64,000 bases of DNA from a virus (IMGVR_UViG_3300045119_000370:53743-117742), one strand, 5' to 3'. Shown: positions 6,749-64,000, counted from the stretch's first letter. Notes: generated from the sequence alone by a model not told the origin. A program made the numbers and translations.

Positions 6749-6750
6749 GA

Positions 6751-6779
6751 CTTGTAATCCCTTCTCCTTTGCATCATAT
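6751..6779 (+). promoter_or_regulatory. Early promoter
   Basis: CTTGTA-N17-TCATAT, same family as 1674 and 9390. Confidence 0.55.
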
Positions 6780-6825
6780 AAAGCGTGGCGGCAACATAAC
6801 CGCCATGCTAGAAGGGAACGAGACC

Positions 6826-49092: not shown

Positions 49093-49412
49093 TGCAGGTC
49101 TCCGACCAACTACGCAAAAGCACCTACGGCTACACCCATTGGTGCCCGGGCTGTAGGTGCTGTCATCACATCGCCGTCGACGAACCCAACGCGAGCGGCG
49201 CGATGTGGTACTTCGACCGCAACTTAAACAAGCCGACCTTCTCGCCGAGCGTTTACTTCCGCTATCTTGACCAGAAGGGCATGCCAATCGGCATCTGTCA
49301 CTACCACTTGGTCGCCGGCCAGCTGAGCTTTCAGGACGATTGCACACATGGTTACGTCGGCCGGATCGTCGATTTGCCCGCATTGCCGCCCGGACTACGC
49401 GACAAGGAATAG
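49092..49412 (+). CDS. DUF6527-like Cys/His protein (MQVSDQ...)
   Basis: HWCPGC...W.FD....KPTFSPS...CHY.L..G.LSF.DDCTH. Confidence 0.6.
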   Translation: MQVSDQLRKSTYGYTHWCPGCRCCHHIAVDEPNASGAMWYFDRNLNKPTFSPSVYFRYLDQKGMPIGICHYHLVAGQLSFQDDCTHGYVGRIVDLPALPPGLRDKE

Positions 49413-49417
49413 CCGAA

Positions 49418-52400
49418 ATGGTTGAACGTCTCAGACTGGACGCGGTGGACAAAGCCGCCAAGGGCAACAACGGCCGCGCCGGCCTGATGATGACCGGCCT
49501 CGTCGCGCCGCCGCCCCGCCTCAAGGCAATGACCCCGATGGGCGTGTCCGGCGTCAGTGTGTTGAGCGGCTACGTCCGCACCACCGAGAAGAATGCCGAC
49601 TGGGTCGGAAGCCGCAAATGGCAGACGATTGCCGACATGAGCGTCAACGTCAGTATCGTTGCCGCCAGTGTCGGCTTCTTCTTGAACATGGTGGCGCATC
49701 CAGCGTGGACGGTGAAGCCGGCCGAGGACGTCAAAGAGGGCAAGTCGAGCAAGGAAGCCGAGAAGCTCGCCGAGTTCGTCCACGAAGTCATCAACGACAT
49801 GACCACGCCGTGGCAGCGCGTGGTCCGCCGTAGTGCGATGTACCGCTTCAACGGTTTCGGCATTCAGGAGTGGATTGCCAAGAAGCGCGACGACGGCAAG
49901 ATCGGCATCAAGGACATCGAGCCGCGTCCGCCGTTCACGATTGAGCGCTGGGCAGTCGACGACGACGGCACGATTCTCGGTGTGTGGCAGCGCAGCCCAC
50001 AGACGTTTGAGCTTCTCGGCTTGCCACGCGGCAAGCTGATATACTTGGTCGACGACACTTATACTGACCAGCCCGACGGTATCGGTGTCTACCGTATGCT
50101 GGCCGAGCCGTTCAATCGGCTGAAGCAGTATCTCGAACTCGAAGCCCGCGCCTATGAGCGCGACATGCGTGGCATCCCGATTGGCCGCGCCCCGATCACT
50201 GCGATCAGGCAGATGGTCAAGGAAGGCCGCCTGACCGACAAGGAGGGCGAGGGCCTGTTGCAGGGCATCCGCGATTTCATCACCACGCAGGTGCGCGACA
50301 AGAACACGTCGCTGCTGATGGATTCGCTGCCTTACGAGAACCAGACCGCCGACGGCCTGACGATTGCCGGCACCCAGCAGTGGGACGTCAGCCTGTTGTC
50401 GGGCGGCGTCAGTGGCTTCGCCGACATGGCCAAGGCCATCGACCGGCTACAGCGCGAGATCGCGAGGATCATCGGTACTGAGCATTTGATGATGGGCGAT
50501 CAGGGCGGCAACCGTGCCCTCTCCGAGGACAAGAGCCGCAACCTCTACCTCATCGCCAATGCCGTGCTCGCCAACATCGCCGATGCGATGAACCACGACG
50601 TCATCGATCCGGTCTGGTCGTTGAACGGCTTCGATCCCAAGCTCAAGCCGAAGTTCAGCACCGAGGACGTCGCCTTCAAGAACGCGCAAGAGATCGCCAC
50701 GGCGCTGCAAGCGATGGCGGCGGCCGGCGCTGTGCTCCAGCCCAACGACCCGGCCATCGACGACGTCCGCGACTTGCTCGGCATCGCCAAAGCACCCGAG
50801 ATGACGCCGGCACAGATCGGCATGATGCAGGGAGCCGCCGCTGGCGCGCCCGGAGCGCCCGGCGCTGCCGGTGGACCGTTCGGGGCCAAGAAACCACCCC
50901 AGCCCGCTCCTACCCCGGCGGCCGGGGCCAACGGCAAGGCACCGGGCAGGGGCAGTCCTCCCCAACTCGACGATGCCAAGCAGCAACAGGTCGCAGATAC
51001 AACCGACAGTCAGTCGAAGCGGCCCGGTCAGAAGCCGGTGCCGACCAAGAAGCGCTGGGACGAGTACGACGAGTTCAGGAAGTACAATCACTACCACGGC
51101 GAGCACGGCTACTTCGCGTCTGGTTCCGGCGACCCGACGAGCACGGCCGGCTGGGGCGGTAGCGGCCCGGGCGGCTCACTGAGCATCGACGACTACGCCA
51201 ACCAAGCGATGGGCAATCTCGGTCGTACCAGCCGCACGGCACAGGGTGTGCTCGACACCTCGTCGAGCGCCGGCAAGGAGGACAAGTTGGTCGCCGGCCT
51301 GACCGGCGAGCACGCCGCGATGCAGGCCAAGCAGAACTTCGAAGGGGCGATCCGCGATCTCTACTACGAGCGCAACGACGTCCCCGACCGCTGGCGCGAC
51401 ATGGAGGTGCGTGTCGACAAGCTCGCCGAGGACATCAATCAGGGCATCGTGCGTCCGGGCGAGGTCAACCGCACACTCGAAACCAAGTTCCCCAACCAGA
51501 CCAGTGCACTCGATCTGCCGATTGCCAAGAAGCAGTTCGCGCAGGAATTGACCGACCGGCTACGTGATCCGCACGCCGATCCGGTCGAGACCGCCGCGTG
51601 GATCGAGTGGCGCGCCAACATCATGGACCATTTCTGGTCGGACGGTGTCGGCAAGACCTCGAAGGCGCTGGCGGCATTGCCGCTGATGCGCGCCGGCATC
51701 GCACTGCCCAACTACCCCGACAACAAAGTATTTTATGGCTACGCGCCCAAGACCAAGGTCGACCCGCGCAACGGCGGCAGTGCCTATCTCGGCAGCGAGT
51801 GGAAGAAGTTCAACGATTACTATCACACACTGATCCCGGTCAGGAAGTACAATCCGAACCACGTTCCGGCTGGCTCACCGGAAGGCGGACAGTTCGCGCC
51901 GAAGGACGGGCAACTCGAACTGCCGTTCGAATCGCGGGCGCTGGTGCCGGCGGAATCGCATGCACTGGTGCCGATGGAGTCCGGGCCGAACGCAAACAGT
52001 CTGGCGACCCAGCTGCCGGCGGCCGCCAACGACAATCTGCCGGTTTCACGCAAAGACCCGGAAGCTTCGCTTAAGACGAGGCAGTGGCTGGCCTTGAACG
52101 CGCGCCGGAAGCTGGCCGACGGTTTGTCCAGCGTCAAGGAGGTCGGGGCGGAACTGGGTGCAAGTACGGCGCGCGAGTTCGCGGTTATCGCGGCGGTCGA
52201 CATGGTCATGCATGCTGTCGTCCCGGTCCTGCCCGAGCCGTTCGGTGCACTGACGGCGGCGGCGTTGACCGCGACCGTCGGCAAGATCGCTACCAAGCTC
52301 GGCGTTACCGAGGAGAACATCCGTCACGGTCTGAGGGCCGGGATCAACAAGCTCATCGAGTTCCGCAAGTCGCAGCTGACACTCGGTCGTTTGCGGGCGG

Positions 52401-55400
52401 TCCCGGCAGGCGCGGTCGTCGATCTGGACAGAGGTCGCATCCTGACCAAGGGCGACGAGGACATTGGCCTGTTCTTCCTTTTCAAGGACGACAACGCGGC
52501 CGGACCAGACGACGCCATCTTGCAGTGGCTGTATGCGATCAACGACATGCTCGACCATCCAACGCCGGCACAGCGTGACCCGGCGACACAGCCGGCCGCC
52601 AATGCCACCGTGCACGTCAATCGTCTGCATGACGTCACCGACATGACCGTCAAGTACAATCACGAGCATGATCCGAAGAGTGGCGAGTTCGCCCCGACCG
52701 GCGAAGGCGAGGTCAGTGGTGGCGGCGGGGCTGAACTGACTGGCACCGCGCAGTGGGTGCGCCCGAGCGAAGCCAACATGCGGCAGGAGTACAAGGTCGA
52801 GTACCAGCATCACTTCAAGGATGCGCACGGTGACATGTTCCCGAACGAGCAGGACTTCGTCGATGCGGTCAAGGCCGCGCCGACGGTGACTGTCGACCGT
52901 GCTCTCGACGGTCGCATCAGCAACCGCAGCCAGACCTCCAGCATGAGCAGTCTGCTCGGTCTGATCCGGGGCTACCGCTCCTATCCCAAGTTCAGGAACG
53001 AGAAAACACTGACGGCACTGGAAGACCGCATCAAGACCGGCAAGCCTACCGACATGGCGATTGTCACCAAGGACGGCAACAGTATGCGCGTGCTCAGTGG
53101 CAACACGCGCATGGACATCGGCTTCATGCATAACGACCGGGTCAAGGTGGTCATGCTCGATGTCGGCAAGTACCGTAAGTACAACGAGAAGCACCAGCCG
53201 GGTGGCTCGCCCCAAGGTGGAGAGTTCGCGCCGAAGGACGGCGGTGAGGGCGGCGGCGTCGGTGGAGGCAAAAACTACGGACTGGTCCCCGGCGACGTCC
53301 AGAAGTTCCACGAACTCAAGTCGCAGTGGGCCAAGGTCAACAACAATCTCTTGACCCACATCGATCACCCGGATTCGCCGGAAGCGCAGATCGCGATGCA
53401 CGAGATGGAGCGCATCTCGAAGGAGATCGGTCAGCTGCATGCTGATCCCGGTGGCCCGGAAGGCATCGGTCTCCCCGGCGGTCCCCGTGACGTGACGATT
53501 ATCGGCGCAGGTCCGGGCGGTCTGGCAGCGAGCATCTTCGGTGGGGCCGAGGGTCTCGATACACTGATTGTCGAGAAGAACGTCGAGGCCGGCGGACAGG
53601 CACGCTACTCGTCGCGCATCGAGAACTTCCCCGGCTTCCCGGTCGGTGTGACCGGCGAGACCCTGACCAGCAATATGTTCGAGCAGTCGGCGCGTCTCGG
53701 TGCCGAGAACAAGCTCGGTGTCAGTGTCACCGGCATGACCGTTGATCCGATCACCGGGATGAAGACGCTGACGATGTCGGACGGCACCTCCGTCGACAGC
53801 CGCACGGTCATACTGGCCGGCGGCGTCGAGTTCCGCCAGCCCGACTTCCCCGGTGCGGATGGGTCGGGCGTGTTCGTCGGCGACGGCAAGAAGCTGGCCG
53901 AGGAGAGCGTCGGCGGCACTGCCGTGGTGCTCGGCGGCTCGAATGGCGCGGCACAGGCTGCACTGGGCGCAGCGACGCAAGCCGATCAGGTCTACCTGAT
54001 CTCGCGCAGCCCAATCGCCAAGGGCATGAGCGACTACCAAGTCAGTGCACTGGGCAACCAGCCGAAGGTCACGGTCCTAGAGAACGACGGCATCGCCAGT
54101 CTCAACCGCGATGCGGCGGGCAACCCGGTGAGCATCACCACCAAGAGCGGGCAGACGATCTCGACCAAGGCGGTCGGTGTGTTCACTGGCAGTGTGCCGT
54201 CGACGAACTGGCTACCGTCAGGAATTAGTCGCAACAAGGCCGGCATGGTGACCACCGACCGGAACCTGCAAACCAGTATTCCGGGTGTGTTCGCGGTCGG
54301 CGACATGCGCGAGGGAGCCATCGGCAGAATCGGTGTCGCGGTCGGCGAGGGGCAGCTGGCACTGCGTGAAGCGCACGTCTATCTGGAAGACAGCCGGAAA
54401 GCGCAGGCCAAGCTCGACGTGGCGATTGCCCACGACGACACGCACAAGGCGGCCCAAACGTTCAACGCCTCCGATCTGCTCACACGGCTGTTTGCCATCG
54501 ACCGCGCCAATCCGTGGTTCGGGCAGACGGTCGAGGACGTCAAGCCGCCGGTCAAGAAGTACAACGAGAAGCATCAGCCGGGCGGTTCACCTGAAGGCGG
54601 ACAGTTCGCGCCGAAGGACGGCGGCGGTGAGGGCGGCGGTAGCGCCGAGGGCGGCCACAAGGTCAACAGCGCAGGCGAACTGGTAGGCTACGTCCCGAAG
54701 CCCGTCAGTTCGGCCAGCGAATTGTACGAGCGCACACGTGATCCCAGTGCCACCCCGGAGAGCGTCATGGCAATCGCCGGTCCCGATGTCGCCGCCAAGG
54801 CCGCCGAGGCCGAGCGGCGGCTGAAAGACGATGTGGCGACGCAGACCAAGTTCTTGGGCAAGGACGGCAAGTACATTCCCACGCGCGAGGCCCTGCACAA
54901 CGACATCCTGCACAACGGTGGCATTGACAGCAAAGGCAAGCGCACTGCATGGACCGGCTTCACTCCCGAGGCGATTGCCAATGCAAGGCCGGCAGAAGGC
55001 GAACAGAAGACGCTGTACGTGTTGGGTGGACGTGGCGGGGCCGGCAAGAGTTGGTTCTCGAAATCGCCCGACAGCCCCTTCGACGCTTCCAAGACGATGT
55101 ACATCAACAGCGACGACTTCAAGGAATCGTTGCCCGAGTACGCGGGCTGGAACGCCGGCTCGGTACACGAGGAGGCCAGCGACATAGCCAACCGTGCGCA
55201 TGAGTGGGCGCGCAACGCCGGCCTCAACGTCACCTTCGACGCCACCCTCAAATCGAGCGGCTCGGTCAGTAAGCTGATCTCGGATTATGAGAAGGCCGGT
55301 TACAAGATCGAGGGCTACTTCATGCACACTGCGCCACAGGTTAGTGCGGTGCGCGCCATGCACCGCTTCAATCACACTGGCAGGTACGTGCCGGCGAAAT

Positions 55401-55525
55401 ACATATTGGGCAGCACGTCCAACGAGGCAACGTTCGACTCGATGCGGACGCGCTTCAGTAAGTGGGCGGTTTATGATAACAACACCGGCAGAGGCCCGGT
55501 CAAGGTGGCCGAGAACAAGAGGTGA
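49418..55525 (+). CDS. Portal protein fused to five motif-delimited effector modules (2035 aa)
   Basis: N-terminal ~470 aa portal-like (DUF935/Mu gp29-type pattern, located after TerL); one uninterrupted frame through Fic-like, unknown, ParB-like, TrxR-like and zeta-like domains; AAGGA RBS before 49418. Confidence 0.85.
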   Translation: MVERLRLDAVDKAAKGNNGRAGLMMTGLVAPPPRLKAMTPMGVSGVSVLSGYVRTTEKNADWVGSRKWQTIADMSVNVSIVAASVGFFLNMVAHPAWTVKPAEDVKEGKSSKEAEKLAEFVHEVINDMTTPWQRVVRRSAMYRFNGFGIQEWIAKKRDDGKIGIKDIEPRPPFTIERWAVDDDGTILGVWQRSPQTFELLGLPRGKLIYLVDDTYTDQPDGIGVYRMLAEPFNRLKQYLELEARAYERDMRGIPIGRAPITAIRQMVKEGRLTDKEGEGLLQGIRDFITTQVRDKNTSLLMDSLPYENQTADGLTIAGTQQWDVSLLSGGVSGFADMAKAIDRLQREIARIIGTEHLMMGDQGGNRALSEDKSRNLYLIANAVLANIADAMNHDVIDPVWSLNGFDPKLKPKFSTEDVAFKNAQEIATALQAMAAAGAVLQPNDPAIDDVRDLLGIAKAPEMTPAQIGMMQGAAAGAPGAPGAAGGPFGAKKPPQPAPTPAAGANGKAPGRGSPPQLDDAKQQQVADTTDSQSKRPGQKPVPTKKRWDEYDEFRKYNHYHGEHGYFASGSGDPTSTAGWGGSGPGGSLSIDDYANQAMGNLGRTSRTAQGVLDTSSSAGKEDKLVAGLTGEHAAMQAKQNFEGAIRDLYYERNDVPDRWRDMEVRVDKLAEDINQGIVRPGEVNRTLETKFPNQTSALDLPIAKKQFAQELTDRLRDPHADPVETAAWIEWRANIMDHFWSDGVGKTSKALAALPLMRAGIALPNYPDNKVFYGYAPKTKVDPRNGGSAYLGSEWKKFNDYYHTLIPVRKYNPNHVPAGSPEGGQFAPKDGQLELPFESRALVPAESHALVPMESGPNANSLATQLPAAANDNLPVSRKDPEASLKTRQWLALNARRKLADGLSSVKEVGAELGASTAREFAVIAAVDMVMHAVVPVLPEPFGALTAAALTATVGKIATKLGVTEENIRHGLRAGINKLIEFRKSQLTLGRLRAVPAGAVVDLDRGRILTKGDEDIGLFFLFKDDNAAGPDDAILQWLYAINDMLDHPTPAQRDPATQPAANATVHVNRLHDVTDMTVKYNHEHDPKSGEFAPTGEGEVSGGGGAELTGTAQWVRPSEANMRQEYKVEYQHHFKDAHGDMFPNEQDFVDAVKAAPTVTVDRALDGRISNRSQTSSMSSLLGLIRGYRSYPKFRNEKTLTALEDRIKTGKPTDMAIVTKDGNSMRVLSGNTRMDIGFMHNDRVKVVMLDVGKYRKYNEKHQPGGSPQGGEFAPKDGGEGGGVGGGKNYGLVPGDVQKFHELKSQWAKVNNNLLTHIDHPDSPEAQIAMHEMERISKEIGQLHADPGGPEGIGLPGGPRDVTIIGAGPGGLAASIFGGAEGLDTLIVEKNVEAGGQARYSSRIENFPGFPVGVTGETLTSNMFEQSARLGAENKLGVSVTGMTVDPITGMKTLTMSDGTSVDSRTVILAGGVEFRQPDFPGADGSGVFVGDGKKLAEESVGGTAVVLGGSNGAAQAALGAATQADQVYLISRSPIAKGMSDYQVSALGNQPKVTVLENDGIASLNRDAAGNPVSITTKSGQTISTKAVGVFTGSVPSTNWLPSGISRNKAGMVTTDRNLQTSIPGVFAVGDMREGAIGRIGVAVGEGQLALREAHVYLEDSRKAQAKLDVAIAHDDTHKAAQTFNASDLLTRLFAIDRANPWFGQTVEDVKPPVKKYNEKHQPGGSPEGGQFAPKDGGGEGGGSAEGGHKVNSAGELVGYVPKPVSSASELYERTRDPSATPESVMAIAGPDVAAKAAEAERRLKDDVATQTKFLGKDGKYIPTREALHNDILHNGGIDSKGKRTAWTGFTPEAIANARPAEGEQKTLYVLGGRGGAGKSWFSKSPDSPFDASKTMYINSDDFKESLPEYAGWNAGSVHEEASDIANRAHEWARNAGLNVTFDATLKSSGSVSKLISDYEKAGYKIEGYFMHTAPQVSAVRAMHRFNHTGRYVPAKYILGSTSNEATFDSMRTRFSKWAVYDNNTGRGPVKVAENKR
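51080..51844 (+). other. Module 1: Fic/Doc-like domain
   Basis: HFWSDGVGKTSK at 51629 versus Fic HPFxDGNGRxxR. Confidence 0.6.
52652..53176 (+). other. Module 3: ParB/Srx-like domain
   Basis: AIV......RVLSGNTRM (SGNTR at 53096). Confidence 0.5.
53177..54556 (+). other. Module 4: thioredoxin-reductase-like flavoprotein
   Basis: DVTIIGAGPGGL, IENFPGF, VLGGSNGA, TSIPGVFAVGD, AVGEG. Confidence 0.9.
54557..55525 (+). other. Module 5: zeta-toxin-like P-loop kinase
   Basis: GGRGGAGKS at 55025, INSDDFK, FDATLK, R...TGRYVP, WAVYDN. Confidence 0.8.
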
Positions 55526-55529
55526 GCCG

Positions 55530-56129
55530 ATGGCCGACGAGAAGCTGAAGTGGCCTGCCGAGTTCTACGAATCCGGCGAAGCCATGCCCGACAGCGAGGA
55601 TGTCACGGCGCGCTATTCGTCCGACTTCGACAAAAACAATCTCGCGCGCATCCGCGCGATCATGGCACAGCAGCGCGAGATCGAGCCGGTCCTCAAGTAT
55701 TTTGTCGACACTGGTTATCGGGCGATGAACAAGGTGCTGCGCGGCGAGCACCTGCGCAAGCGTGACAACGACTTCGCTCGCGAGCAGATGGTCAAGATCG
55801 ACGAGGCGCTCGCCTCGCCCTACAACCGGACGCCGTCGCCGCTCTTGGTCTATCGCGGCATCACACCCGAGTTCGCGCACAGCCTCATCGACGCGCTCAA
55901 GGCCGACGGCAAGTTCAGCGACGCCGGCTACATCATTGCCTCGACGGTGCCACGCCAGACGCCGTACCAGTTGCAGATCGAGCTACCCGCCGGCACGCCC
56001 TATCTCACGCTCAGCAAGTTCCTGATCAACGAGATCGTCCTGCCGCATGGCGGCCGCTTGCAAGCGGTGGCGCACCACGAGCTACCGCAGACCAAAGTCC
56101 GCATCGTGGCACGCTGGTTAGGCACATGA
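55530..56129 (+). CDS. VIP2/Alt-like ADP-ribosyltransferase-fold protein, possibly degenerate
   Basis: GYRAMNKVLRG, VYRGI, DAGYIIAST, NEIVLP; GAGGT RBS. Confidence 0.7.
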   Translation: MADEKLKWPAEFYESGEAMPDSEDVTARYSSDFDKNNLARIRAIMAQQREIEPVLKYFVDTGYRAMNKVLRGEHLRKRDNDFAREQMVKIDEALASPYNRTPSPLLVYRGITPEFAHSLIDALKADGKFSDAGYIIASTVPRQTPYQLQIELPAGTPYLTLSKFLINEIVLPHGGRLQAVAHHELPQTKVRIVARWLGT

Positions 56130-56449
56130 ACCTCGACACTTTCTGGTGGGGTTGGGCGTTCGGCGTCTTGGTCACGGGCGTCGGCGTGATCCTCGTCATC
56201 GGCTCAAGTGCCATCCGTCATCAGTACGACCGGATGCGACGACGCCGTGATTACACGTTGACCAATTACTCGATCAACTACGCGGATGAGTTCTTCAAAA
56301 AGCTGCACAAACGCGACGAACCGATCAGTTGGTTCGACGGTTTGCCCAACGACGATGAGGTCGACGAGGAATACTTAAAAGCAGGCGATAAACTTTTCGA
56401 GGAGCTAGAGGAGCAGGAGCATGGAAGACCGAGGCCCGAACAAAGGTAA
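56126..56449 (+). CDS. Membrane protein with acidic tail
   Basis: N-terminal TM helix; ATGA overlap. Confidence 0.6.
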   Translation: MNLDTFWWGWAFGVLVTGVGVILVIGSSAIRHQYDRMRRRRDYTLTNYSINYADEFFKKLHKRDEPISWFDGLPNDDEVDEEYLKAGDKLFEELEEQEHGRPRPEQR

Positions 56450-56612
56450 TTGGCAGGGTCAGGGCGTTGTCATCGTTCGTCCCGCCAAAGAGGGTGACCC
56501 AGACTTCGATCCCACGTTGGGAATCGGTGAGCAGGTCATCATCAAGCTCAGCGACGGTAGTGAGCAGACCGTTGCGAGGAAGGAAGTCGAGACCAACCCG
56601 CCGAGCACGTAA
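56421..56612 (+). CDS. Small beta-domain protein, paralogue of the 7.4-8.6 kb proteins
   Basis: WQGQGVVIVRPAKEGDPDFD...EQVIIKLSDGSEQTVARKEV; GAGGAG RBS. Confidence 0.75.
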   Translation: MEDRGPNKGNWQGQGVVIVRPAKEGDPDFDPTLGIGEQVIIKLSDGSEQTVARKEVETNPPST

Positions 56613-59600
56613 ATGGATGACTGGCAGATCGACAATATCCGCTTCCCGCTACGACCGCCGCCATGGGACGGTCGTGGCGTCAGCTTCGACTATCTGAAAG
56701 CCAGTCCCTTCGACGACAGTGCAAGCAGTGTAATCGACACTGCGACGGCCGCCACCGATCAGGACGGCTGGTCCAAGCAGTCGCTGTACTTCGGCAACGG
56801 CGCGGTCCTTACCGACCTCAAGCAGCCACTTACCCTGAGCGAACGGGCGAGCGAAGCCGCCGGCAAGTACGTTTACGAGGTCAAGTTCCAGCCCGGCTAC
56901 ACTGTCAATGTCGACGCCTTGCACAATGGGCAAGGGATCGATTATCGCGGCCGCGCCCGCTATCTGGTTTTCTTGGGCAGGGTCGTCGCACTGCACCCCG
57001 ACGAAGACCTCAAGATCGTCGGACGCACCGTGGTCAAGGTGCTCAAGTACAATCCGCATCACGACGAACGTGGTCGCTTCACTACTGGTGACGGCAGCGG
57101 CGGCACCACGATCTCGTCGGACATCCCGGGGCAGGTCGACGTCGGCGGCGCTGGCCCGTTGTTCTCGGCCATACCCGGGCATCCCTCGATCCTCGACGTC
57201 AAGCCGCAAAAGCCCAAGGTCGTCGACGAGAGCGCTCTGCCGAAAGGTTACACAATTGATCCCGTCGCCGACCCGAAGACTGGTGTCGTCGACTATGCGG
57301 TCATGTACGAGGGCCATGGTGTCATCGGTCAGTTCGATCAGAAGATCAGTGCGGTCGAGTATGCGCACGAGCACGCGGCGACCGCGACGCCGGCCACACC
57401 GCTTGTCACGTCCGTCCCCAATCAGAGCAGCCTGTCGATCAATACGGCACCGGGAGCAGACTGGTTCCACCTTGGTGCCGAGCACCTGCCAGAGGATTAC
57501 ACTGTCGAGCCGGGAGCCGATAACGAGGGCGGCTTTAATGTGCATAACAAGGACGGTCTGTCGGTAACGCATGGGGTCACCGCTGCCGTGGCTGTGGCTA
57601 ACTACTTCAATGGCCACCCGGAGATGGCGCTGCCGGAAGGCTTCACATACGTCCAGTCGCCTTTCTCGCATTCCATTCTCGATACTCACGGTACTGCCGT
57701 GTGGGTGGCGTCGAGCGATCAGAAACCGGCGGACACCATTGAGGACTTCCTCAACAGTTCGAAGGCCCCGGGCATCTTCACGAACACTGGTGGCTCGTTG
57801 GTGCAAACCAAGCCAATGGGTGATCTGGGGTTAGGTCCGACGCCGGCAGGGTTCCAGCTGTCGAGCTACAGCTTGCCGACCGGCTACACTGCCGCGCAGG
57901 ACTCGGCTGGTTCGCAGCTGTGGGGCGTCAAGAACGCCAAGGGTGAGTACGAGACCTTCGGCACCAACGAGAAGGAGGCGGTCAACAACTTCTTCGATTC
58001 GCATCCGCAGTCGGGCATGCCGGACGGCTACACTTGGGTGTCCGGCAACATCCTCAACGCACAAGGCGAGGTGGTCCACTCACAGATCGATCCGGCGCAG
58101 AAGCCGTCGCAGGCTATCGAGGAGTTCCTCAACAGCCCGAAAGCACCGAGCGAGTTTCACATTGGCGACGGCACGGCCGCGATCCACGCCGAGCCTGCCA
58201 TCGCAACATACACTGGCACGTCAGCCCCGGGGACGCCGCAGTACACACTGGCGTCCGGCATGACGGCTGGGCACACGCCATACGGTGAATTGAAGATTGG
58301 CAACTCGGTCTTGCCCGACGTCAAGATCGAGCAGGTCTCGGCCGATGGTGGGTACAAGATCACCAACCAAGACGGTTTCAAGCTCGGTGAAGGCGACACA
58401 GCCGAGCACGCGCTGGACAACTTCATGGCGACGCATCCGTCGCTGGCGTCGACCATTGCGACGGAGTTCGGTTTGCCGGCGGCTACGAGTAAACCCTCGC
58501 CACCGATTGGCGTTGATCACTTGCCGAAGGGCTACAAGGTCGTCGACGACACTGCTGCTGGTGGCAGCGTCAAGGTACAGGATGAGGGCGGCAACAATTT
58601 AGTGCATGGTGACACTCAGGCCGAGGCGCTGCACAATTACTTTACGGCCTACCCGAACACGGCGCTGCCGGACGGCTTCACTACCGATTACAACCCGTTC
58701 AAGCAGTCAGTCACAATCCTCGACGAACATGGCATGACGGTTCACGAGGAGTTCCAACCGGACGGGGATCAGAAGACCTACGACGTCGTCGCCAATTATC
58801 TGGCGGGTAAGCCAAGCACGTTCGATACGAGCGGTAGTCTGCCGCCACCCAAGTTCGTCCCGGGCGAGGAGCATCTGCCGCCCGGCGTATACTTGAATGA
58901 GCATGCCGGCGGCTACTCACCGGTCAAGGTGCTCTCTTCAGGAGGTTCGGTGCTCGGTGCCGGCCAGACCAAGGAAGAGGCACTGCACGAGTATTTTACT
59001 TACCACGCCGGCTCGATGCTGCCGGCCGGCTACAAGGTAGATTTCGATTCCGTCGCCGACGTGCCGATCATCACTGATCCAGCCGGCAACGAGGTGCTGG
59101 AAGGCAAACCCGGTCAGGGCAGCTACGACGCGGTCGTCAGTTATCTCACCGCGAACCCGGGATTGGCGGCCGGCGGGACGCCGTCGGCTACGGCAACGGC
59201 CGCACCGAAGTTTCAGTGGCAACCCGGCATCGGCAATCTGCCCGAGGGCTACAAGGTCGAGCAAGACCCCTCCCCGTTCAAGGGGCAGGAGTTCAAGATC
59301 AAGAACGACTACGGCGAGACCGTCGCGTATGCCAGTACGCAGGACGCCGCACTGCATGAGTATTTCGATCAGCACCCGAACGAGGCGCTGCCGGAAGGAA
59401 TCAATCTCCACAACTATCATTACGGCAACGACGCGGCCACCATCACCGACTCACACGGTGCGACACTGTGGACCGCGCCGGCCGGCGTGTACGGCCTCGA
59501 AGCGGTCACCGCCTACATGTCGCGCGATCAGCCGGTCACTTCGCTTGCCGATCTCCCTGAGAGCTTTTATCTCGGCCCCGGTCGTCCCGGCCTCGAACCG

Positions 59601-61928
59601 CTGGGCGAGGCGGGCCTGCCGCCCGGCTTCAACGTCACGCACGAGCGCGGGGGCGACACTACTGACACCTACGGCGACACTGAGGCTGCGCCGCCGTCGT
59701 CGCACCAAATCACCTCCGATGAGAAGCAGGCGGTCTACGATTACACTGGCGTCGGCAACGCTTCGGTCAACAAGCTCTTGCGCGACGGCATCAAGCCTGA
59801 CAGCCCGGGCACCACCAACAAGCGCATCAAGCTACTCGATCAGATTTTCAGCGACACCTCGACGTCCAAGGACATGATACTGCACCGTGGCATCAGTTCC
59901 AACGCGGTGGCCAGATTGGAGGAGGCGATCAAGCATACTGACGGGCACTTCGTCGACCCCGGCTTCGTCTCGGCCTCGACCAAGGAGCACACTGCCGAAG
60001 GCTGGAAGAGTGGCGACTACGTGACCATCACGGTGCCGAGGGGCAGTAAGGCAATCGACGCCGACCCGATGTCGCAGAACCCCGGTGAGGGCGAGTGGAT
60101 CATGGCTCGCAATCAGCACTTCCAGATCACCGGCAAGGAACCAACTCACAGCGGTCTGAGCTACGGCCACCACACGCACTACTTCGCCAAGCTGGTCAAC
60201 AAGATCACGCCGAAGGACACAAGGCAGCTTGACCTGCCGTTCATCGACCGTGGTCCGGTCAATAAGCAGGACGAGGGAGCCTACGACCCGAACGAGAAAT
60301 TTACTTGGGACGAATCCGGCATCGTGCCGACGCTCCCCGAGGACATCGTCAGTAAGTACAACGAGGTCCACGATCCACACACTGGCGAGTTCGCTAGTGG
60401 ACCCGGCAGTCAGGCTTATATCGAGCGCGCCGCCCGTTTCATGCAGCGGGTAAAGGGCGAGCTTCAGCTGGGCGTCGAGGGCACCAACCCCAACGCAGGG
60501 ATACGGCAAGTCGACCGGACGCCGATCACCACCGACGATTCGCCCGAACTGCCGATGGTCATGCCGCAGACGCCACCGAGCGGGCCGCTGGTCTTTCACG
60601 GCACGTCGCAGGAGGCGCTCGCCTCAATCGAAGCCAATGGTCTGGTGGCGCGTGGTGGTGCCGGCGCGGACCAGTGGGCGCAGGAGCACCCCGAGTATTT
60701 CTCGCCGGGCGGCACCGACCCGGGCGTCGGCTCGGCGATGGTCACCAAGTTCGCCGACAAGCCTGCCAACCTGTTCGTCGCGTCCAATCCCGAGACCGCC
60801 ATCCGTTACGCCGGCTTCGCTGCCAAGCTGACTGGCTCGACCCCGGTGCTCATCCCGGTGCACCTGTCGCAGAACATGGCACGCATGCTCTCTTGGGACG
60901 CCGCCGGCCACGAAGGCGAGATGAAGCTCGACGGTGACGTGCACATTCCCAAGGAGTGGCTGGGCAAGCCTGCGGTGGGCACTGCCGCGATGACCGAGAT
61001 GCTCGCCAACTACTACCGGATGCCCAAGAGCGTGAAGCTGCCGGTGCCGTTCGAGACCGGTACACCGAGCCAGATATTGCCGAACGTCGACGAGCGATCA
61101 GCCCACGACGTCATGGGCAAGGCCGGCGACGTGGTCGTCTATCTCGTGTTTTTCGTCGCCGGCATCGAGAAGTACAATCCGCACCACGACGAGCATGGAC
61201 GGTTCAGTAGTGGCGACGGCGTACCGAGTGGCGACATACCGCTGGCACCGCATCTGCGCGCACAGGCAGAAACCCAAAACAAGAAGGCAAAGAACCTGCT
61301 GTTCATCAGACAGCAAAGCAAAGAGCTTGGCTTCGATCCCGACCGCGTCGACCTCATGTACACGCCGCGCACTTTCGAGTTGAACGGCAAGAAGTACGAT
61401 TATGCCGGCGCTGCCTACCCGAGCGGCGACATCGAACTGTGGCCAGATGAGATGCGCAACGACCAGTTCCAGATGCGACAGGTGCTGGCCCACGAGATCA
61501 TGCACGAGCGCTTCAACGACTTCGTCGCCGAGTATGAAAAGCAGAGCGAGGAGGTCCGGCTGGCTAATCAGGGTCACAACAGCACGTGGGACATGGAAGG
61601 GCATCTGACCCCCGAGTACGCCGCGAAGTGGCCGCTTTTTGCCGAGGTCAATAATCGCAACCTGTTCAGCGGCACCAAGATGGCCGAGGGCGACGGCATC
61701 ACGTCCTACAGTAAGGAGTGGTGGAAGGCGTGGGGTGACAGCAAGGCCAACACGTCGCAGGCGATTACCGAGACACTGGCCGAGATGGCGGCAAGCGCGG
61801 TCAGGGACCACAAGCCCAACAATCAGGTGTTCACATCGGGGGGAGCCAGCACCTACGCGCCGAGCAATGAATGGCTTCGTTTGGCCGAACTGGTCAACGA
61901 GAACTGGGACAGGAAGCACCCGACATGA
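56613..61928 (+). CDS. Effector polyprotein 2 (1771 aa): LPxG repeats + R-S-E ART, HGT-type ART-fold domain, zincin peptidase
   Basis: Three KYN motifs; LHRG / FVSAS / EGE; VFHGTS...I...GL; LAHEIMHE...ETLAE. Confidence 0.85.
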   Translation: MDDWQIDNIRFPLRPPPWDGRGVSFDYLKASPFDDSASSVIDTATAATDQDGWSKQSLYFGNGAVLTDLKQPLTLSERASEAAGKYVYEVKFQPGYTVNVDALHNGQGIDYRGRARYLVFLGRVVALHPDEDLKIVGRTVVKVLKYNPHHDERGRFTTGDGSGGTTISSDIPGQVDVGGAGPLFSAIPGHPSILDVKPQKPKVVDESALPKGYTIDPVADPKTGVVDYAVMYEGHGVIGQFDQKISAVEYAHEHAATATPATPLVTSVPNQSSLSINTAPGADWFHLGAEHLPEDYTVEPGADNEGGFNVHNKDGLSVTHGVTAAVAVANYFNGHPEMALPEGFTYVQSPFSHSILDTHGTAVWVASSDQKPADTIEDFLNSSKAPGIFTNTGGSLVQTKPMGDLGLGPTPAGFQLSSYSLPTGYTAAQDSAGSQLWGVKNAKGEYETFGTNEKEAVNNFFDSHPQSGMPDGYTWVSGNILNAQGEVVHSQIDPAQKPSQAIEEFLNSPKAPSEFHIGDGTAAIHAEPAIATYTGTSAPGTPQYTLASGMTAGHTPYGELKIGNSVLPDVKIEQVSADGGYKITNQDGFKLGEGDTAEHALDNFMATHPSLASTIATEFGLPAATSKPSPPIGVDHLPKGYKVVDDTAAGGSVKVQDEGGNNLVHGDTQAEALHNYFTAYPNTALPDGFTTDYNPFKQSVTILDEHGMTVHEEFQPDGDQKTYDVVANYLAGKPSTFDTSGSLPPPKFVPGEEHLPPGVYLNEHAGGYSPVKVLSSGGSVLGAGQTKEEALHEYFTYHAGSMLPAGYKVDFDSVADVPIITDPAGNEVLEGKPGQGSYDAVVSYLTANPGLAAGGTPSATATAAPKFQWQPGIGNLPEGYKVEQDPSPFKGQEFKIKNDYGETVAYASTQDAALHEYFDQHPNEALPEGINLHNYHYGNDAATITDSHGATLWTAPAGVYGLEAVTAYMSRDQPVTSLADLPESFYLGPGRPGLEPLGEAGLPPGFNVTHERGGDTTDTYGDTEAAPPSSHQITSDEKQAVYDYTGVGNASVNKLLRDGIKPDSPGTTNKRIKLLDQIFSDTSTSKDMILHRGISSNAVARLEEAIKHTDGHFVDPGFVSASTKEHTAEGWKSGDYVTITVPRGSKAIDADPMSQNPGEGEWIMARNQHFQITGKEPTHSGLSYGHHTHYFAKLVNKITPKDTRQLDLPFIDRGPVNKQDEGAYDPNEKFTWDESGIVPTLPEDIVSKYNEVHDPHTGEFASGPGSQAYIERAARFMQRVKGELQLGVEGTNPNAGIRQVDRTPITTDDSPELPMVMPQTPPSGPLVFHGTSQEALASIEANGLVARGGAGADQWAQEHPEYFSPGGTDPGVGSAMVTKFADKPANLFVASNPETAIRYAGFAAKLTGSTPVLIPVHLSQNMARMLSWDAAGHEGEMKLDGDVHIPKEWLGKPAVGTAAMTEMLANYYRMPKSVKLPVPFETGTPSQILPNVDERSAHDVMGKAGDVVVYLVFFVAGIEKYNPHHDEHGRFSSGDGVPSGDIPLAPHLRAQAETQNKKAKNLLFIRQQSKELGFDPDRVDLMYTPRTFELNGKKYDYAGAAYPSGDIELWPDEMRNDQFQMRQVLAHEIMHERFNDFVAEYEKQSEEVRLANQGHNSTWDMEGHLTPEYAAKWPLFAEVNNRNLFSGTKMAEGDGITSYSKEWWKAWGDSKANTSQAITETLAEMAASAVRDHKPNNQVFTSGGASTYAPSNEWLRLAELVNENWDRKHPT
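57237..59630 (+). repeat. Degenerate ~45-60 aa LPxG(Y/F) protein repeats, about 14 units
   Basis: LPKGY, LPEDY, LPEGF, LPTGY, MPDGY, LPDVK, LPKGY, LPDGF, LPPGV, LPAGY, LPEGY, LPEGI, LPESF, LPPGF. Confidence 0.8.
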
Positions 61929-64000
61929 GCTTGCAGCGCACCGAGATAGATGGCCGCCCGGTCTGGGTCGGTGAACTGGACAACGGCATGCTCAAGCTGG
62001 TCTACGACGATGGCGAGATCGCCTTCGCCGTTCCCCACGACGACACCCAGAAGTTCAATCCATGGCACGACTTGATGGGCCTGTTCTCCAGCGGCCCGGG
62101 TGCCGGCGCTGGCGCTCCTAGTCACGGCAGCACCGGTAGTGCCACTGCCAGCGAGACGACGATCAATGAACTGATCAATCCGAGCGTTCTCGCGGCGCAG
62201 CGTGAGGCGGTACAGTACTACACCGACGAAGGCTACCTCACGATCAACAACTGGCTCAGGGAGGGTGAAGCGCCGCCTGCGGTTCTGGCCGAGGAGAATC
62301 GGAGCACCATTCGTCACCTCGACAGCCTGCTCGGTTCGGCTTCGCTCGACAAGGACACCACGGTCTATCGCGGCATTTCCAAAGCCGGTGCCAAGCGTTT
62401 CGATGAGGCCCTCGCCAATGGTGATACAACTTTCGTCGACAGGGGATTCCTCTCGACCACACGTGATGAGCATTACGCCGAGGTCTTCGCTGCGAGCATC
62501 AAGCATAGCAACGCCGTCGTCGACATCGTCCTGCCCAAAGGCAGTCATGCACTCGACGTGGCGACATGGTCGAGTTCGCCGGACGAGCAGGAGACACTGG
62601 TCCAGCGGGGCAGCGTCTTCAAGATCGAGAGCAAGACGTTCGACAACGACACCAACGCGCCGATCTATCACGTGCGGCTGGTGCCCGGCCAACAGCAGCT
62701 AGACCTGCCGTTCGGCAAGCGCAAGTACGGCAGCGACAACAAGTACGTTTGGCAGGGCCACGAGTTGGTCTTCCTGACCAACAAGTACAATCACGAACAC
62801 GACCCCCACACGGGTGAGTTTGCCAGTTCCGGTGATGGTGGTGCCGGCGTCAATCAGGTCGGTGGTGCGCCGCTCACCCCGTGGAGCGATCATCCGACCG
62901 ACATCGCCGGCTGGGCCAAGGTCGAGGGGCAGAAGCCCGATCTGGTCGAGCCGCCCTTCCACCTCGATCACGGCGAGCGCACGGCCAGTGGCGTGGTCAT
63001 CCAAGAGCCGGACGGGCGCGTCTGGCTGGTTCACCCGGCCAACCAGTTCGGCGGCTACAACGCCACCTTCCCCAAGGGCGGCGTCGAGCCGGGCCTGAGC
63101 ATGCAGGCGAACGCGATCAAGGAAGCCTACGAGGAGTCCGGCCTCAAGGTGAGGATCACCGGCTACGCCCGCGACGTCGAGCGGACCACGTCGAAGACTC
63201 GCTACTATTTCGCTGAGCGCGTCGGCGGCAACCCGACCGACCATGGCTGGGAGACCGATCACGTCTCGCTGGTCGCACCCGGCAAGTTGTCGAGTGTCGC
63301 CGATCACCCCATCGATCAGCCGCTGATCGAGCAAATCCGCAACCTCAAAAAGTACAATCACGCACACGATCCCAAGAGCGGAGAGTTCGCCAGTGCAGGA
63401 GACACTGGACCGGTAGTGTTCCACGGCACCAGCGAGGCCATGCTCAAATCGATCCAAGAGAAGGGGCTGGTGCCACAGGGTGGGACTGGTGCCGACACTT
63501 GGCTGCATGGTCAGAAGTGGTCGACCGAGATCGCCGGCCGCCCGGCGTCGGTCTATTTCGCGGGTGACCCGCGCACGGCACAGCGCTTCGCCGAGTTGGC
63601 AGCACAGACCACTGGCTCGACCCCGGTCGTTCTGCCGATCCACCTGACCAATGCCGAGGCGGCGCAGATGGTCTGGGACGAGCAGGCGTCACGGCCGGCG
63701 CACATGCGCGTGGCGAGCGCTATCCCAGCCAGCCAGATCGGCACGCCCGCCGTGGGCATGGAAGCCATCGACAAGCTGACCCGGTTCTACGATTCGAACT
63801 GGGAAGACCTCGCGGTCGGTGAGGACCAGACCAATGCCGGCATGCGACCGTCCGAGACGCTGCTACCGGTGACGTCGGGCAACACTGTCGACCGGATCAT
63901 GCGCGGCACCTACAAGGTGATCGGCAAGCGTCTGATTTACGCTGTCATCCTCATCGACCCAGTGGCCAAGTATAATCACGCACACGATCCGCACTCTGGC
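61925..64000 (+). CDS. Effector polyprotein 3, truncated by window (>692 aa): R-S-E ART, Nudix hydrolase, HGT-type ART-fold domain, further module(s)
   Basis: Translated by hand from ATG 61925 (ATGA overlap), no stop to 64000; VYRGI/FLSTT/EQE; KGGVEPGLSMQANAIKEAYEESGL; VFHGTS; four K(Y/F)N motifs. Confidence 0.88.
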   Translation, partial: MSLQRTEIDGRPVWVGELDNGMLKLVYDDGEIAFAVPHDDTQKFNPWHDLMGLFSSGPGAGAGAPSHGSTGSATASETTINELINPSVLAAQREAVQYYTDEGYLTINNWLREGEAPPAVLAEENRSTIRHLDSLLGSASLDKDTTVYRGISKAGAKRFDEALANGDTTFVDRGFLSTTRDEHYAEVFAASIKHSNAVVDIVLPKGSHALDVATWSSSPDEQETLVQRGSVFKIESKTFDNDTNAPIYHVRLVPGQQQLDLPFGKRKYGSDNKYVWQGHELVFLTNKYNHEHDPHTGEFASSGDGGAGVNQVGGAPLTPWSDHPTDIAGWAKVEGQKPDLVEPPFHLDHGERTASGVVIQEPDGRVWLVHPANQFGGYNATFPKGGVEPGLSMQANAIKEAYEESGLKVRITGYARDVERTTSKTRYYFAERVGGNPTDHGWETDHVSLVAPGKLSSVADHPIDQPLIEQIRNLKKYNHAHDPKSGEFASAGDTGPVVFHGTSEAMLKSIQEKGLVPQGGTGADTWLHGQKWSTEIAGRPASVYFAGDPRTAQRFAELAAQTTGSTPVVLPIHLTNAEAAQMVWDEQASRPAHMRVASAIPASQIGTPAVGMEAIDKLTRFYDSNWEDLAVGEDQTNAGMRPSETLLPVTSGNTVDRIMRGTYKVIGKRLIYAVILIDPVAKYNHAHDPHSG

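Follow-up and report, generated by a model that had tools for sequence, protein, structure and literature searches.

A conserved, putative clamp-binding hexapeptide in the linkers of capsid-associated phage polyproteins

The window analysed here, a 64,000-nucleotide stretch (IMGVR_UViG_3300045119_000370:53743-117742) of a 117,742-base phage genome, encodes three long polyproteins, and the hexapeptide QL[D/E]LPF occurs once in each of them. It occurs there non-randomly, lies in linkers, is conserved in relatives and matches the consensus of beta-clamp ligands. We consider the chances to be about evenly balanced that the hexapeptide is an Hda-type clamp-binding motif, one that would tether effectors delivered by the capsid to the beta clamp of the host. 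Its presence suggests that the phage may aim three effector modules at the host replication machinery.

Table 1. Features of the phage genome discussed in the text; positions are counted from the first letter of the window unless another contig is named
Feature	Position	Strand	Description
Beta sliding clamp	25260..26354	+	phrog_947, E 2.1e-33; peptide pocket rebuilt
Family A DNA polymerase with N-terminal UDG-superfamily domain	26542..29136	+	Pfam DNA_pol_A 4.3e-40, UDG 2.2e-20
Clamp loader subunit	29608..30579	+	phrog_5846 9.8e-67
Terminase large subunit	46224-47984		Upstream of the polyproteins
Polyprotein 1 (2061 aa)	49340..55525	+	Portal, tagged modules, thioredoxin-reductase-like flavoprotein and zeta-toxin-like kinase, in this order
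Tag 2, KYNPNHVPAGSPEGGQF	51845..51895	+	KYNxxH...GxF tag, of which the genome has 13
Site 1, QLELPF	51911..51928	+	5 residues past tag 2 of the portal-fused polyprotein 1, heading a helical module
Polyprotein 2 (1771 aa)	56613..61928	+	N-terminal part, repeats of about 100 aa, ART, site 2, hairpin and tag, further module, tag, HEIMH module
ART of polyprotein 2	59700..60143	+	R (LHRGIS), S (FVSAST), ExE (EGE)
Site 2, QLDLPF	60225..60242	+	9 residues beyond the last ART strand, polyprotein 2
Hairpin-like EKFTW... element and tag, KYNEVHDPHTGEF	60294..60392	+	Opens the unit after site 2
HEIMH motif	61491..61505	+	C-terminal module of polyprotein 2; candidate zincin-type processing peptidase
Polyprotein 3	61871..64000 and beyond	+	Tag, ART, site 3, hairpin and tag, NUDIX, tag, further module, tag
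First ART of polyprotein 3	62192..62641	+	R (VYRGIS), S (FLSTT), ExE (EQE)
Site 3, QLDLPF	62696..62713	+	4 residues beyond the last strand of the first ART, polyprotein 3
Hairpin-like NKYVW... element and tag, KYNHEHDPHTGEF	62738..62821	+	Opens the unit after site 3
Head protein	L001 2928-3389		Downstream of the polyproteins

The hexapeptides and the modules that carry them

The three hexapeptides listed in the initial annotation were all recovered, each in frame with one of three long polyprotein ORFs, the last of which runs to the window end (Table 1). A six-frame scan of the window and of the entire 117,742-base genome found QLxLPF at these sites only, and the looser pattern LxLPF was likewise restricted to them; the phage's remaining ARTs are without the motif, as are the other ARTs of two relatives (P0014 and P0015). 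Within the 4,541 polyprotein residues, the three QLxLPF copies compare with 0.0016 expected (0 of 2000 residue shuffles reached three), and the a priori hexamer class Q[LIVM]x[LM]x[FL] was observed three times against 0.30 expected (at least three in 6 of 2000 shuffles), although the apparent coincidence is inflated, as it was likeness to a known motif that drew attention to the hexapeptides. The DNA flanks of the three sites cannot be aligned and the codons differ (CAA or CAG for Q; CTC, CTT or CTA for the first L), and selection therefore acts on the peptide and not on the DNA. We read QL[D/E]LPF as a short linear motif under purifying selection, placed in flexible linkers of capsid-associated polyproteins. 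Modules and tags of these polyproteins have been shuffled and duplicated, and the hexapeptide could in principle be a functionless leftover of linker duplication. We find this extremely improbable in view of the unrelated flanks and differing codons; moreover, the motif adjoins three unrelated modules, and it survives at 30-50% protein identity while the linker around it diverges in both sequence and length.

Each polypeptide combines several unrelated effector domains, namely portal, flavoprotein and zeta-like kinase in polyprotein 1 (portal, phrog_113 6.1e-45; Pfam Portal_Mu 1.2e-20, Pyr_redox_2 4.2e-30, Zeta_toxin 5.6e-24), ART and HEIMH module in polyprotein 2, and ART, NUDIX and a further ART in polyprotein 3. 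Polyprotein 1 holds five tags, and polyprotein 3 crosses the contig end (the two ends overlap by 182 bases) and closes with its second ART at genome bases 3-800. No significant Pfam or NCBIfam family was obtained for the HEIMH module; a homologous module on an unrelated phage contig (L002) has HEIEH instead. The hairpin-like element, in the form (D/N)(K/R)FxW, also starts separate ORFs, as seen in P0009, in P0010 (Met-start) and in two ORFs of L002.

Both motif-bearing ARTs are assigned to the R-S-ExE ADP-ribosyltransferases by profile, fold and catalytic residues. They match Pfam ADPrib_exo_Tox against a cutoff of 23.4 bits (polyprotein 2, 6.4e-17, 62.0 bits; first ART of polyprotein 3, 5e-21, 75.4 bits) and phrog_802 'Alt-like' (8.4e-10 and 1.7e-08, respectively), and the catalytic R, S and E are invariant across a 31-row ART alignment. 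With Foldseek, the best matches of the first polyprotein-3 ART were Certhrax, C3 and VIP2 (E 4e-13 and weaker, probability 1.00). Only two of the three motif-bearing modules are ARTs; the third is helical, with a sub-threshold match to the sigma-70 region 4 HTH (E 0.0012, 18.7 bits against a cutoff of 24.1). That these proteins are injected we infer from the portal fusion and from their position in the head gene module, and the three modules are probably loaded into the phage head.

Linker location and conservation in relatives

The linker placement noted in the initial annotation, and with it an accessible, disordered location, gains support from an AF2 model in the case of site 3 and from variable, low-complexity flanks in relatives in the case of sites 1 and 2. 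In the model, the ART has a pLDDT above 90, the motif is without secondary structure, and the mean pLDDT of 10-residue blocks drops from 97 to 70 to 40 across site 3.

In all the closer relatives found, the hexapeptide occupies the matching sites (QLKLPF twice, QMDLPF and QLDLPF). Site 2 is present in 4/4 orthologues of the polyprotein-2 ART at 47-100% identity (QLDLPF; QMDLPF in P0163; QLKLPF in both P0014 and P0015). Site 3 is present in 3/3 orthologues of the polyprotein-3 ART at 67-100% identity, two of the three being cluster mates, and is kept in P0011 and P0163, in which the ART is 67-68% identical. With regard to site 1, all three relatives have it (QLDLPF in L025 and L026, module 79% identical; QLELPF in L027, 99%), and it is still kept in L025 and L026, where the tag ahead of it has been swapped for a different, shorter variant. 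Q1, L4, P5 and F6 are invariant in 6/6 aligned junctions and are the sole invariant linker columns; L or M stands at position 2 and D, E or K at position 3. The spacers vary from 4 to 12 residues between ART end and motif and from 8 to 31 residues between motif and next unit. Because the motif is kept beside the orthologous ARTs, the lack of conservation in homologues that the initial annotation had named as speaking against its reading is not what we found.

The motif is limited to about four lineages that make up a narrow clade, and tagged polyproteins in general do not have it. Among 149 representatives with an ART, the other 146 show QLxLF and QLxLx[LF] no more often than expected by chance. 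A sample of 61 tag-bearing frames (30,520 residues and 83 tags from 40 IMG/VR loci) showed no enrichment of the clamp-motif class (2 observed against 4.4 expected), and its strict forms were observed once (L002 itself, present again as L028) against 0.49 expected. The copy in L002 is QLDLF, the strongest pentameric clamp consensus, which stands 8 residues after a tag and ahead of the HEIEH module; it is an isolated case, picked up post hoc and not conserved, since QLDLF is absent from the distant orthologue of this module (L029).

Five of the six residues being strictly conserved would also suit a specific protease, and QLxL(P)F could be a processing site, recognised by the polyproteins' own HExxH peptidase module or by a head maturation protease and marking where particular modules are cut free. 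Embedded zincin-like peptidases have been proposed, in passages of PMC5512222, to process polyvalent phage proteins; the HEIMH module ends polyprotein 2, and the QLDLF of L002, directly before the HEIEH module, would be a natural place for self-release. We nevertheless regard a processing site as unlikely. The motif is found at only 3 of about 13 module boundaries, whereas tags are found at every boundary, and the residues immediately flanking it are not conserved. P0163 keeps both motifs though the HExxH module is missing from that stretch, whereas L029 has the HExxH module and no motif, and the exact fit to both the 6- and the 5-residue clamp consensus would be left unexplained.

Fit to the clamp consensus and candidate partners

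According to the passages of a review on beta-clamp ligands (PMC11139829), these fall into a hexamer class, Q-phi-x-[L/M]-x-[F/L], and a pentamer class, Q-phi-x-[L/M]-[F/L]; QLxLF and QLxLxF are given as the best binders, and the Hda peptide PAQLSLPLYL binds with a Kd of 0.38 uM. QLELPF, the two QLDLPF and the relatives' QLKLPF, QMDLPF and QLDLPF all fit the hexamer class, in agreement with the clamp-motif likeness first noted, and sites 1-3 fit its high-affinity form QLxLxF. The substitutions also follow what the clamp pocket tolerates, in that Q1, L4 and F6 do not change, position 2 alternates between L and M, and position 3 is free. In the same passages (PMC11139829), Hda (QLSLPL) resembles our sites in the six-residue pattern, including Pro at position 5, and in the location in a disordered stretch adjoining a folded domain, and the hexamer class has the same fixed Q1, L4 and last hydrophobic residue and the same free position 3. 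The differences are that the carrier here is a virion polyprotein module (ART or helical module) and not a replication or repair protein, that the hexapeptide ends in Phe, like the best binders, where Hda has Leu, and that the match here is one of sequence.

P5 is invariant in every hexameric copy; it is not required by the clamp consensus, yet it is present in Hda. This proline, which the consensus does not explain, could point to a docking peptide for some other partner, either a component of phage assembly or ejection (portal, scaffold or inner head) or a different host hub, with the clamp likeness being coincidental. Short hydrophobic motifs are common docking elements, and the motif was found only in head-module polyproteins. 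Against such a partner, which we consider doubtful, stands that a shared assembly signal would more plausibly be sought in the tags and the (D/N)KFxW element, which every unit has, than in a motif limited to three modules; besides, a chance fit of a conserved hexamer to the best-binding consensus, with the same tolerated changes, is unlikely.

The bacterial SSB C-terminal tip is an acidic D-D-D-[I/L]-P-F end, and the Bacillus-type tip ends in DLPF, identical to the final four residues of QLDLPF. A cut behind the Phe could in this way create an imitation of the SSB end that competes for SSB partners, which is highly improbable: every copy is internal, none being at a free C-terminus, and Q-L (with M at position 2 once) is kept where SSB is acidic. 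In addition, K replaces the acidic SSB position in two orthologues (QLKLPF), and the L002 copy is without the proline.

As to which clamp a clamp-binding motif might engage, the phage's own was one of the two partners initially put forward. The identification of 25260-26354 as the phage clamp is corroborated by the phrog_947 hit and by an end-to-end match between the clamp family profile and solved DnaN chains (positions 1-358, E 2e-53), and the ORF qualifies as a predicted full-length, three-domain DnaN homologue. As a partner it is nevertheless the less likely one because, at the 18 canonical E. coli pocket positions taken from the review (PMC11139829), it is identical in 2/18 (R152 and L177), a count in which single positions are uncertain as the alignment to E. 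coli DnaN has an overall identity of 19.5%. In the same search, an ordinary bacterial clamp of 32% overall identity kept 14/18 and another bacterial-type clamp 6/18. The rebuilding is also apparent in the pocket segments, in which TDGHRL of E. coli corresponds to FNNISL of the phage clamp, and YVVMPMRL to YMVAAFQP.

Binding to the phage clamp, which might for instance bring effectors or a regulator to phage DNA during replication, would accord with the clamp, clamp loader and polymerase all being phage-encoded, with the sub-threshold HTH match in the module after site 1, and with phage T4, which in passages of PMC12867686 activates late transcription through its own clamp. We judge it very unlikely, as identity to E. 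coli DnaN is lower in the pocket than over the clamp as a whole, proteins that enter together with the DNA would precede any phage clamp synthesis, and a six-frame scan of the 117,742-base genome found no phage replication protein carrying QLxLPF.

Proposed route and comparison with known systems

In the route that we propose, the polyproteins would be built into the head, one being fused to the portal and the others encoded directly after it, and would be cut at or near the KYNxxH...GxF tags, the pieces exiting together with the DNA. Clamp-binding motifs usually sit near the C-terminal or N-terminal ends of proteins. Such cutting would leave the two ExE-type (arginine-type) ADP-ribosyltransferases with the motif near the C-terminal end and the helical module behind site 1 with the motif at the N-terminal end. 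The motif could then insert into the hydrophobic pocket of the host beta clamp, by which the effectors would be concentrated at forks and on those clamps that remain on host DNA; the phage clamp, with its rebuilt pocket, would probably not be the main target, so that phage replication would be left unaffected. Any substrate is conjectural, and modification of replisome or repair proteins by the ARTs is speculation.

T4 Alt has a cleaved targeting leader and acts on RNA polymerase; it is not known to have a clamp motif. It is described in a passage of PMC9503650 as a head-packaged ADP-ribosyltransferase. The ARTs described here would likewise be delivered alongside the DNA, and they differ from Alt in being polyprotein modules. 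The toxin SocB binds the beta clamp. Transposases do so too (a passage of PMC4549789), and both are selfish-element or toxin proteins landing on the clamp pocket, with other folds and delivery routes, none of them being an ART.

The head-module context here matches, by analogy, that of the head-packaged ART and Nudix effectors in the passages compared of PMC5512222 and PMC9503650. These polyvalent, MuF- or portal-fused proteins likewise have many domains per polypeptide (ART, Nudix, HExxH peptidase), a head-gene location and a predicted early injection. The word 'clamp' has 0 occurrences in the main text of either paper, and in the passages compared neither regular KYNxxH...GxF tags nor a clamp-type motif is mentioned.

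MuC of phage Mu, a member of the Mor/C family, carries two terminal clamp-binding motifs, QHDLF and QPDLF, which were tested by two-hybrid and mutation and which recruit the host clamp for late transcription (passages of PMC12867686). It differs from our modules in being a small transcription factor made during infection, whereas these are capsid-associated enzyme modules; its motifs are pentameric and deviant at position 2, and its interaction with the clamp is experimental where ours is a sequence match. The likeness lies in a phage protein having near-consensus clamp motifs at its ends, and also in the HTH that is possible, at sub-threshold level, in the module after site 1. By analogy, MuC provides a precedent, being a phage protein whose clamp-binding motifs are terminal.

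Occurrence and conservation of the QLxLPF motif

The three hexapeptides reported in the initial annotation, one QLELPF and two QLDLPF, lie in frame at exactly the positions it gave (sites 1 to 3 in the table below). They are the only matches to QL.LPF, and even to L.LPF, in six frames of the window and of the whole genome. By composition, 0.0016 occurrences of QL.LPF are expected in the 4,541 polyprotein residues, and three were not reached in any of 2000 shuffles. For the wider class Q[LIVM]x[LM]x[FL], which was taken from the literature definition and fixed before looking, 3 were observed against 0.30 expected, three being reached in 6 of 2000 shuffles, and for QLxLxF the expectation in the polyproteins was 0.026 (3 observed). 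A DNA-level repeat or a recent duplication of the sites was ruled out, since their DNA cannot be aligned beyond the 18 bases and the codons for Q and the first L differ, which points to selection on the peptide and not to recently copied DNA. With regard to other candidates, QLWLRL (6736-6753) precedes the likely Met start of ORF 6679-7320 and was taken as a chance match, and minus-strand frames that overlap the plus-strand genes 37885-39744 and polyprotein 2 hold the remaining QLxLx[LF] matches. No further clamp-type motif was seen by eye at either terminus of the phage polymerase. The phage has at least five ADP-ribosyltransferase (ART) domains, only two of which bear the motif; it is absent from its other ARTs and from the downstream ARTs of the related proteins P0014 and P0015.

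The motif is conserved next to homologous ARTs, which was a check proposed in the initial annotation, and this applies to the orthologues of both motif-bearing ARTs. Searched exhaustively and without a profile, the ART-linker-tag stretch matched 2734 proteins at E <=0.001. In 149 of the best 150 of these 2734 (own protein excluded; 191,713 residues), QLxLPF occurs three times, each time right after the orthologous ART, and in the remaining 146 representatives QLxLF and QLxLx[LF] are as frequent as chance predicts. The motif reads QLDLPF in the relative P0011 and QLKLPF in P0014 and P0015, while the cluster mate P0163 has QMDLPF behind its polyprotein-2-type ART and QLDLPF behind its polyprotein-3-type ART. 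Of the matches to the polyprotein-2 ART, the top four (100, 58, 49 and 47% identity) have the motif, which is missing from the fifth, a paralogous ART at 41%. For the polyprotein-3 ART the three best matches carry it (100, 68 and 67%, the latter two being cluster mates), and none at <=41% identity does among the matches listed. The clade with the motif comprises about four lineages, all metagenomic. Elsewhere, megablast and tblastn against the phages collection gave no match, the word-index protein search returned the self match only, a pattern search of genome contigs gave 97 matches of which 0 were confirmed, and the 7 weak loci from metagenome contigs all lacked the motif in an open frame.

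Three IMG/VR fragments, L027 (99%) and L025 and L026 (79%), preserve site 1. In the latter two the preceding tag (the KYNxxH...GxF element between modules) is swapped for a shorter variant, and the motif is retained with E changed to D. Tags are exchangeable: where this phage has the long variant KYNPNHVPAGSPEGGQFAPKDG (window 51845-51910), its 79%-identical relatives have the short KFNPNHDERGRFAESGGGQ (L025 3634-3700, L026 3029-3095), with both flanks kept.

The spacers range from 4 to 12 residues between ART and motif and from 8 to 31 residues between motif and next unit, and the only invariant linker columns in the junction alignment are Q, the second L, P and F. Variable spacers around these fixed residues are typical of a short linear motif within a disordered linker, and that the motif is conserved while the linkers diverge contradicts the idea of a functionless relic. 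Clamp motifs are not a general property of tagged polyproteins, as judged by the chance-level counts in both samples: in 61 tag-bearing frames (30,520 residues, 83 tags, 40 IMG/VR loci) the clamp-motif class was not enriched (2 observed, 4.4 expected), and strict forms numbered 1 (in the locus L002, seen again as L028) against 0.49 expected.

Location of the motif within the head gene module

The single virus contig, of which the window forms the right-hand 64 kb, has 117,742 bases, and since its first and last 182 bases are identical (window 63819-64000 and L001 1-182, L001 being the other contig end), the assembly is circular or terminally redundant. All motif sites fall within the head gene module, where the terminase large subunit gene is followed by three very long ORFs and, beyond the contig junction, by small ART genes and a head protein. 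Polyprotein 3 crosses the junction, its final ART lying at genome bases 3-800.

Positions of the motif sites and of the genes discussed (window coordinates unless L001 is given)
Feature	Position	Remarks
Phage beta clamp	25260-26354	True beta-clamp homologue
Family A DNA polymerase	26542-29136	N-terminal uracil-DNA-glycosylase-superfamily domain (Pfam UDG 2.2e-20)
Clamp loader	29608-30579	Close to phage clamp gene
Terminase large subunit	46224-47984	phrog_2 3.9e-19
Endolysin/amidase-like ORF	48319-49092	phrog_5867 3.3e-36
Polyprotein 1	49340-55525	2061 aa; portal, then tagged modules, the last a thioredoxin-reductase-like flavoprotein plus zeta-toxin-like kinase
Site 1 (QLELPF)	51911-51928	Polyprotein 1
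Weak ART-like ORF without tag	55287-56129	E 0.00026, under cutoff
Polyprotein 2	56613-61928	1771 aa; N-terminal part, ~100-residue repeats, ART, module of no assigned family, HEIMH module
Site 2 (QLDLPF)	60225-60242	Polyprotein 2
Polyprotein 3	61871 onward	ART, NUDIX domain, module of no assigned family, further ART past contig end
Site 3 (QLDLPF)	62696-62713	Polyprotein 3
Small genes with N-terminal (D/N)(K/R)FxW element and tag	L001 797-1537, ~1534-2127	Then ART or domain without assigned family

In the whole genome, 13 tags of the form KYNxxH...GxF separate the polyprotein modules. We infer that they are cleavage or targeting signals, because they stand at every boundary, the modules need freeing from the portal fusion, and processing has been proposed for polyvalent proteins in the consulted part of PMC5512222. 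Behind the motif, sites 2 and 3 have a (D/N)(K/R)FxW element and, after it, the tag; junctions without this element also lack the motif. Element and tag together form the N-terminus of separate small genes, namely P0009 and P0010 (from the Met start inside it) in this phage and two ORFs in L002. A similar DKF[S/A]Y element occurs behind the ART in the C-terminal tails of the distant proteins P0044, P0076 and P0129, so this type of element is not restricted to unit starts. The motifs of site 1 and of L002 would each represent the N-terminal tail of the module downstream of the tag.

An AF2 model of polyprotein 3 residues 60-330 (31-row alignment) has pLDDT >90 through the last strand of the ART. 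Site 3 begins four residues past this strand and adopts no secondary structure, and the mean confidence of 10-residue blocks falls from 97 to 70 to 40 across it. Foldseek assigned this ART to the C3/VIP2/Certhrax-type fold. The catalytic R, S-x-S/T and E-x-E are present in both motif-bearing ARTs, and this signature of the ART family points to arginine as the acceptor.

The module behind site 1 (51929-52651) has a sub-threshold sigma-70 region 4 match at residues 116-142 (KIATKLGVTEENIRHGLRAGINKLIEF; E 0.0012, 18.7 bits, cutoff 24.1). Over residues 111-164 it also weakly matches the NCBIfam regulatory-domain model TIGR03879 (E 0.0095). Solved structures matched in a profile search only at E >2, and the AF2 model (3-row alignment, mean pLDDT 37.4) was unusable. 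MuC of phage Mu and gp55/gp33 of T4 couple to clamps, and a candidate helix-turn-helix with a clamp motif in this module would parallel them. The linker directly past site 1 (51929-51985) contains a small imperfect repeat (ESRALVP / AESHALVP / MESGP), fully kept in L025 and L026.

Likeness to clamp-binding motifs and proposed action

Natural clamp-binding motifs take the forms Q-phi-x-[L/M]-[F/L] and Q-phi-x-[L/M]-x-[F/L], and the excerpts of the 2024 beta-clamp review used here (PMC11139829) name QLxLF and QLxLxF as the tightest binders and give 0.38 uM for the Hda peptide PAQLSLPLYL on the beta clamp. In the same excerpts Q1 is important, position 2 tolerant and position 3 free, and the last two hydrophobic residues serve as anchor; the phage copies vary just as this allows: position 2 is L or M and position 3 D, E or K, the rest being fixed. 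The motifs of Pol II, Pol IV, Hda and MuC sit in terminal tails, according to the portions consulted of PMC11139829 and PMC12867686. In the unrelated contig L002, a tag of the same type is followed after eight residues by QLDLF, which is the canonical pentameric form, ahead of an HEIEH module. This copy is absent from L029, the sole distant orthologue of the L002 module found, and it counts little alone because it is single, absent from L029 and noticed post hoc. The docking on a sliding clamp put forward in the initial annotation is partly supported: the motif is real, conserved and of clamp-binding type, and binding, target clamp and substrate stay putative. We put the chance that the motif acts in clamp docking, as predicted, at about even.

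The strongest rival is that the motif is a protease recognition site, given the presence of an HExxH module and the L002 copy, which stands directly ahead of one; however, the motif occurs at only 3 of about 13 boundaries, and a protease site leaves the match to both clamp consensus forms unexplained. The motif may also be a docking site for some other partner. SSB ends in DDD[I/L]PF, which DLPF resembles, but mimicry of the SSB tip does not fit the position of the motif, the K that two orthologues have at the acidic position, or the Q-L (M at position 2 in one copy) where SSB is acidic.

As to which clamp would be bound, the phage clamp was aligned to E. coli DnaN (public K-12 record) and compared at the 18 pocket positions given in the excerpts of PMC11139829. 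Only 2 of 18 are identical, below the overall identity of 19.5%; in this distant alignment individual positions may be shifted, but there is a clear difference in the two most conserved pocket segments (TDGHRL to FNNISL, and C-terminal YVVMPMRL to YMVAAFQP). These swaps are conserved in the four full-length relatives of the phage clamp (65-98% identity), whereas two bacterial-type clamps from the same search keep 14/18 and 6/18 pocket positions (32 and 25% overall identity). Because the phage pocket segments differ, the canonical motif fits a host clamp better than the phage clamp, and proteins entering with the DNA would precede any phage clamp. A complex prediction for the phage clamp dimer (9 rows) with the 36-residue site-2 linker (6 rows) scored 0.02 against a mark of 0.32, with the partner fold uncertain and no controls, and weighs on neither side of the question of binding. 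The nearest phage relatives of the phage polymerase, from Vibrio and Edwardsiella phages, share only 31% identity with it.

In the proposed mechanism, arginine-type ARTs delivered from the capsid would ride the host sliding clamp via a high-affinity docking peptide and modify either this clamp or the replication and repair proteins bound to it, so that host DNA transactions could be shut down within seconds of infection. The rim of the clamp pocket is arginine-rich (PMC11139829, in excerpt). A third delivered module, with the candidate sigma-region-4-like helix-turn-helix, might couple to clamps by the same peptide, and the phage, replicating with a pocket-rebuilt clamp, would have a replisome that is orthogonal to its own clamp-directed effectors and not open to attack by them. 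Taken jointly, the three parts (clamp-riding ARTs, helix-turn-helix module on clamps, orthogonal phage replisome) make an improbable whole.

To our knowledge, substrate and means of targeting are undefined for nearly all head-packaged phage ARTs. If the mechanism is true, the docking peptide would give such ARTs an address, the host replisome, and the sliding clamp would join the host hubs attacked by proteins arriving with phage DNA; peptide binding and a motif-dependent toxicity relieved by extra DnaN are predicted. Combined with the rebuilt pocket, this would be a case of a phage shielding its replisome against its own weapons. Should the motif prove to be a cleavage site, it would show what the peptidase modules of polyvalent proteins, so far little studied, recognise. 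The parts consulted of PMC5512222 and PMC9503650 describe head-packaged ARTs, Nudix domains and polyvalent proteins with a portal or MuF fusion; the main texts of both do not contain the word 'clamp', and Mu MuC and Mor are known phage users of clamp motifs (PMC12867686, in excerpt). Among the papers searched, none contains both 'ADP-ribosyltransferase' and 'clamp-binding motif', and nothing relevant came up for phage, clamp motif, injected and capsid. A high-affinity-type clamp motif on capsid-associated ARTs, along with a phage clamp with a rebuilt pocket, appears undescribed in print.

Other elements of the head gene module

The endolysin/amidase-like ORF lies between the terminase and the portal polyprotein, where a lysis gene would not usually be expected; its product may be a virion-associated wall hydrolase. 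Polyprotein 2 contains a run of repeats of ~100 residues (57200-59500, residues ~190-960) with the pattern ...DLP.GY...G..A...G.T..EAL.NYF..HP...LP.GF..., for which no family was found and which is common to P0014 and P0015. Polyproteins 2 and 3 both contain a module of the form PLVFHGTS...GLV..GG... (60393-61169 and 63389-63950), which has only a very weak match to the RNA 2'-phosphotransferase (KptA) model (E 0.12) and on that basis may be a further NAD-utilising domain.
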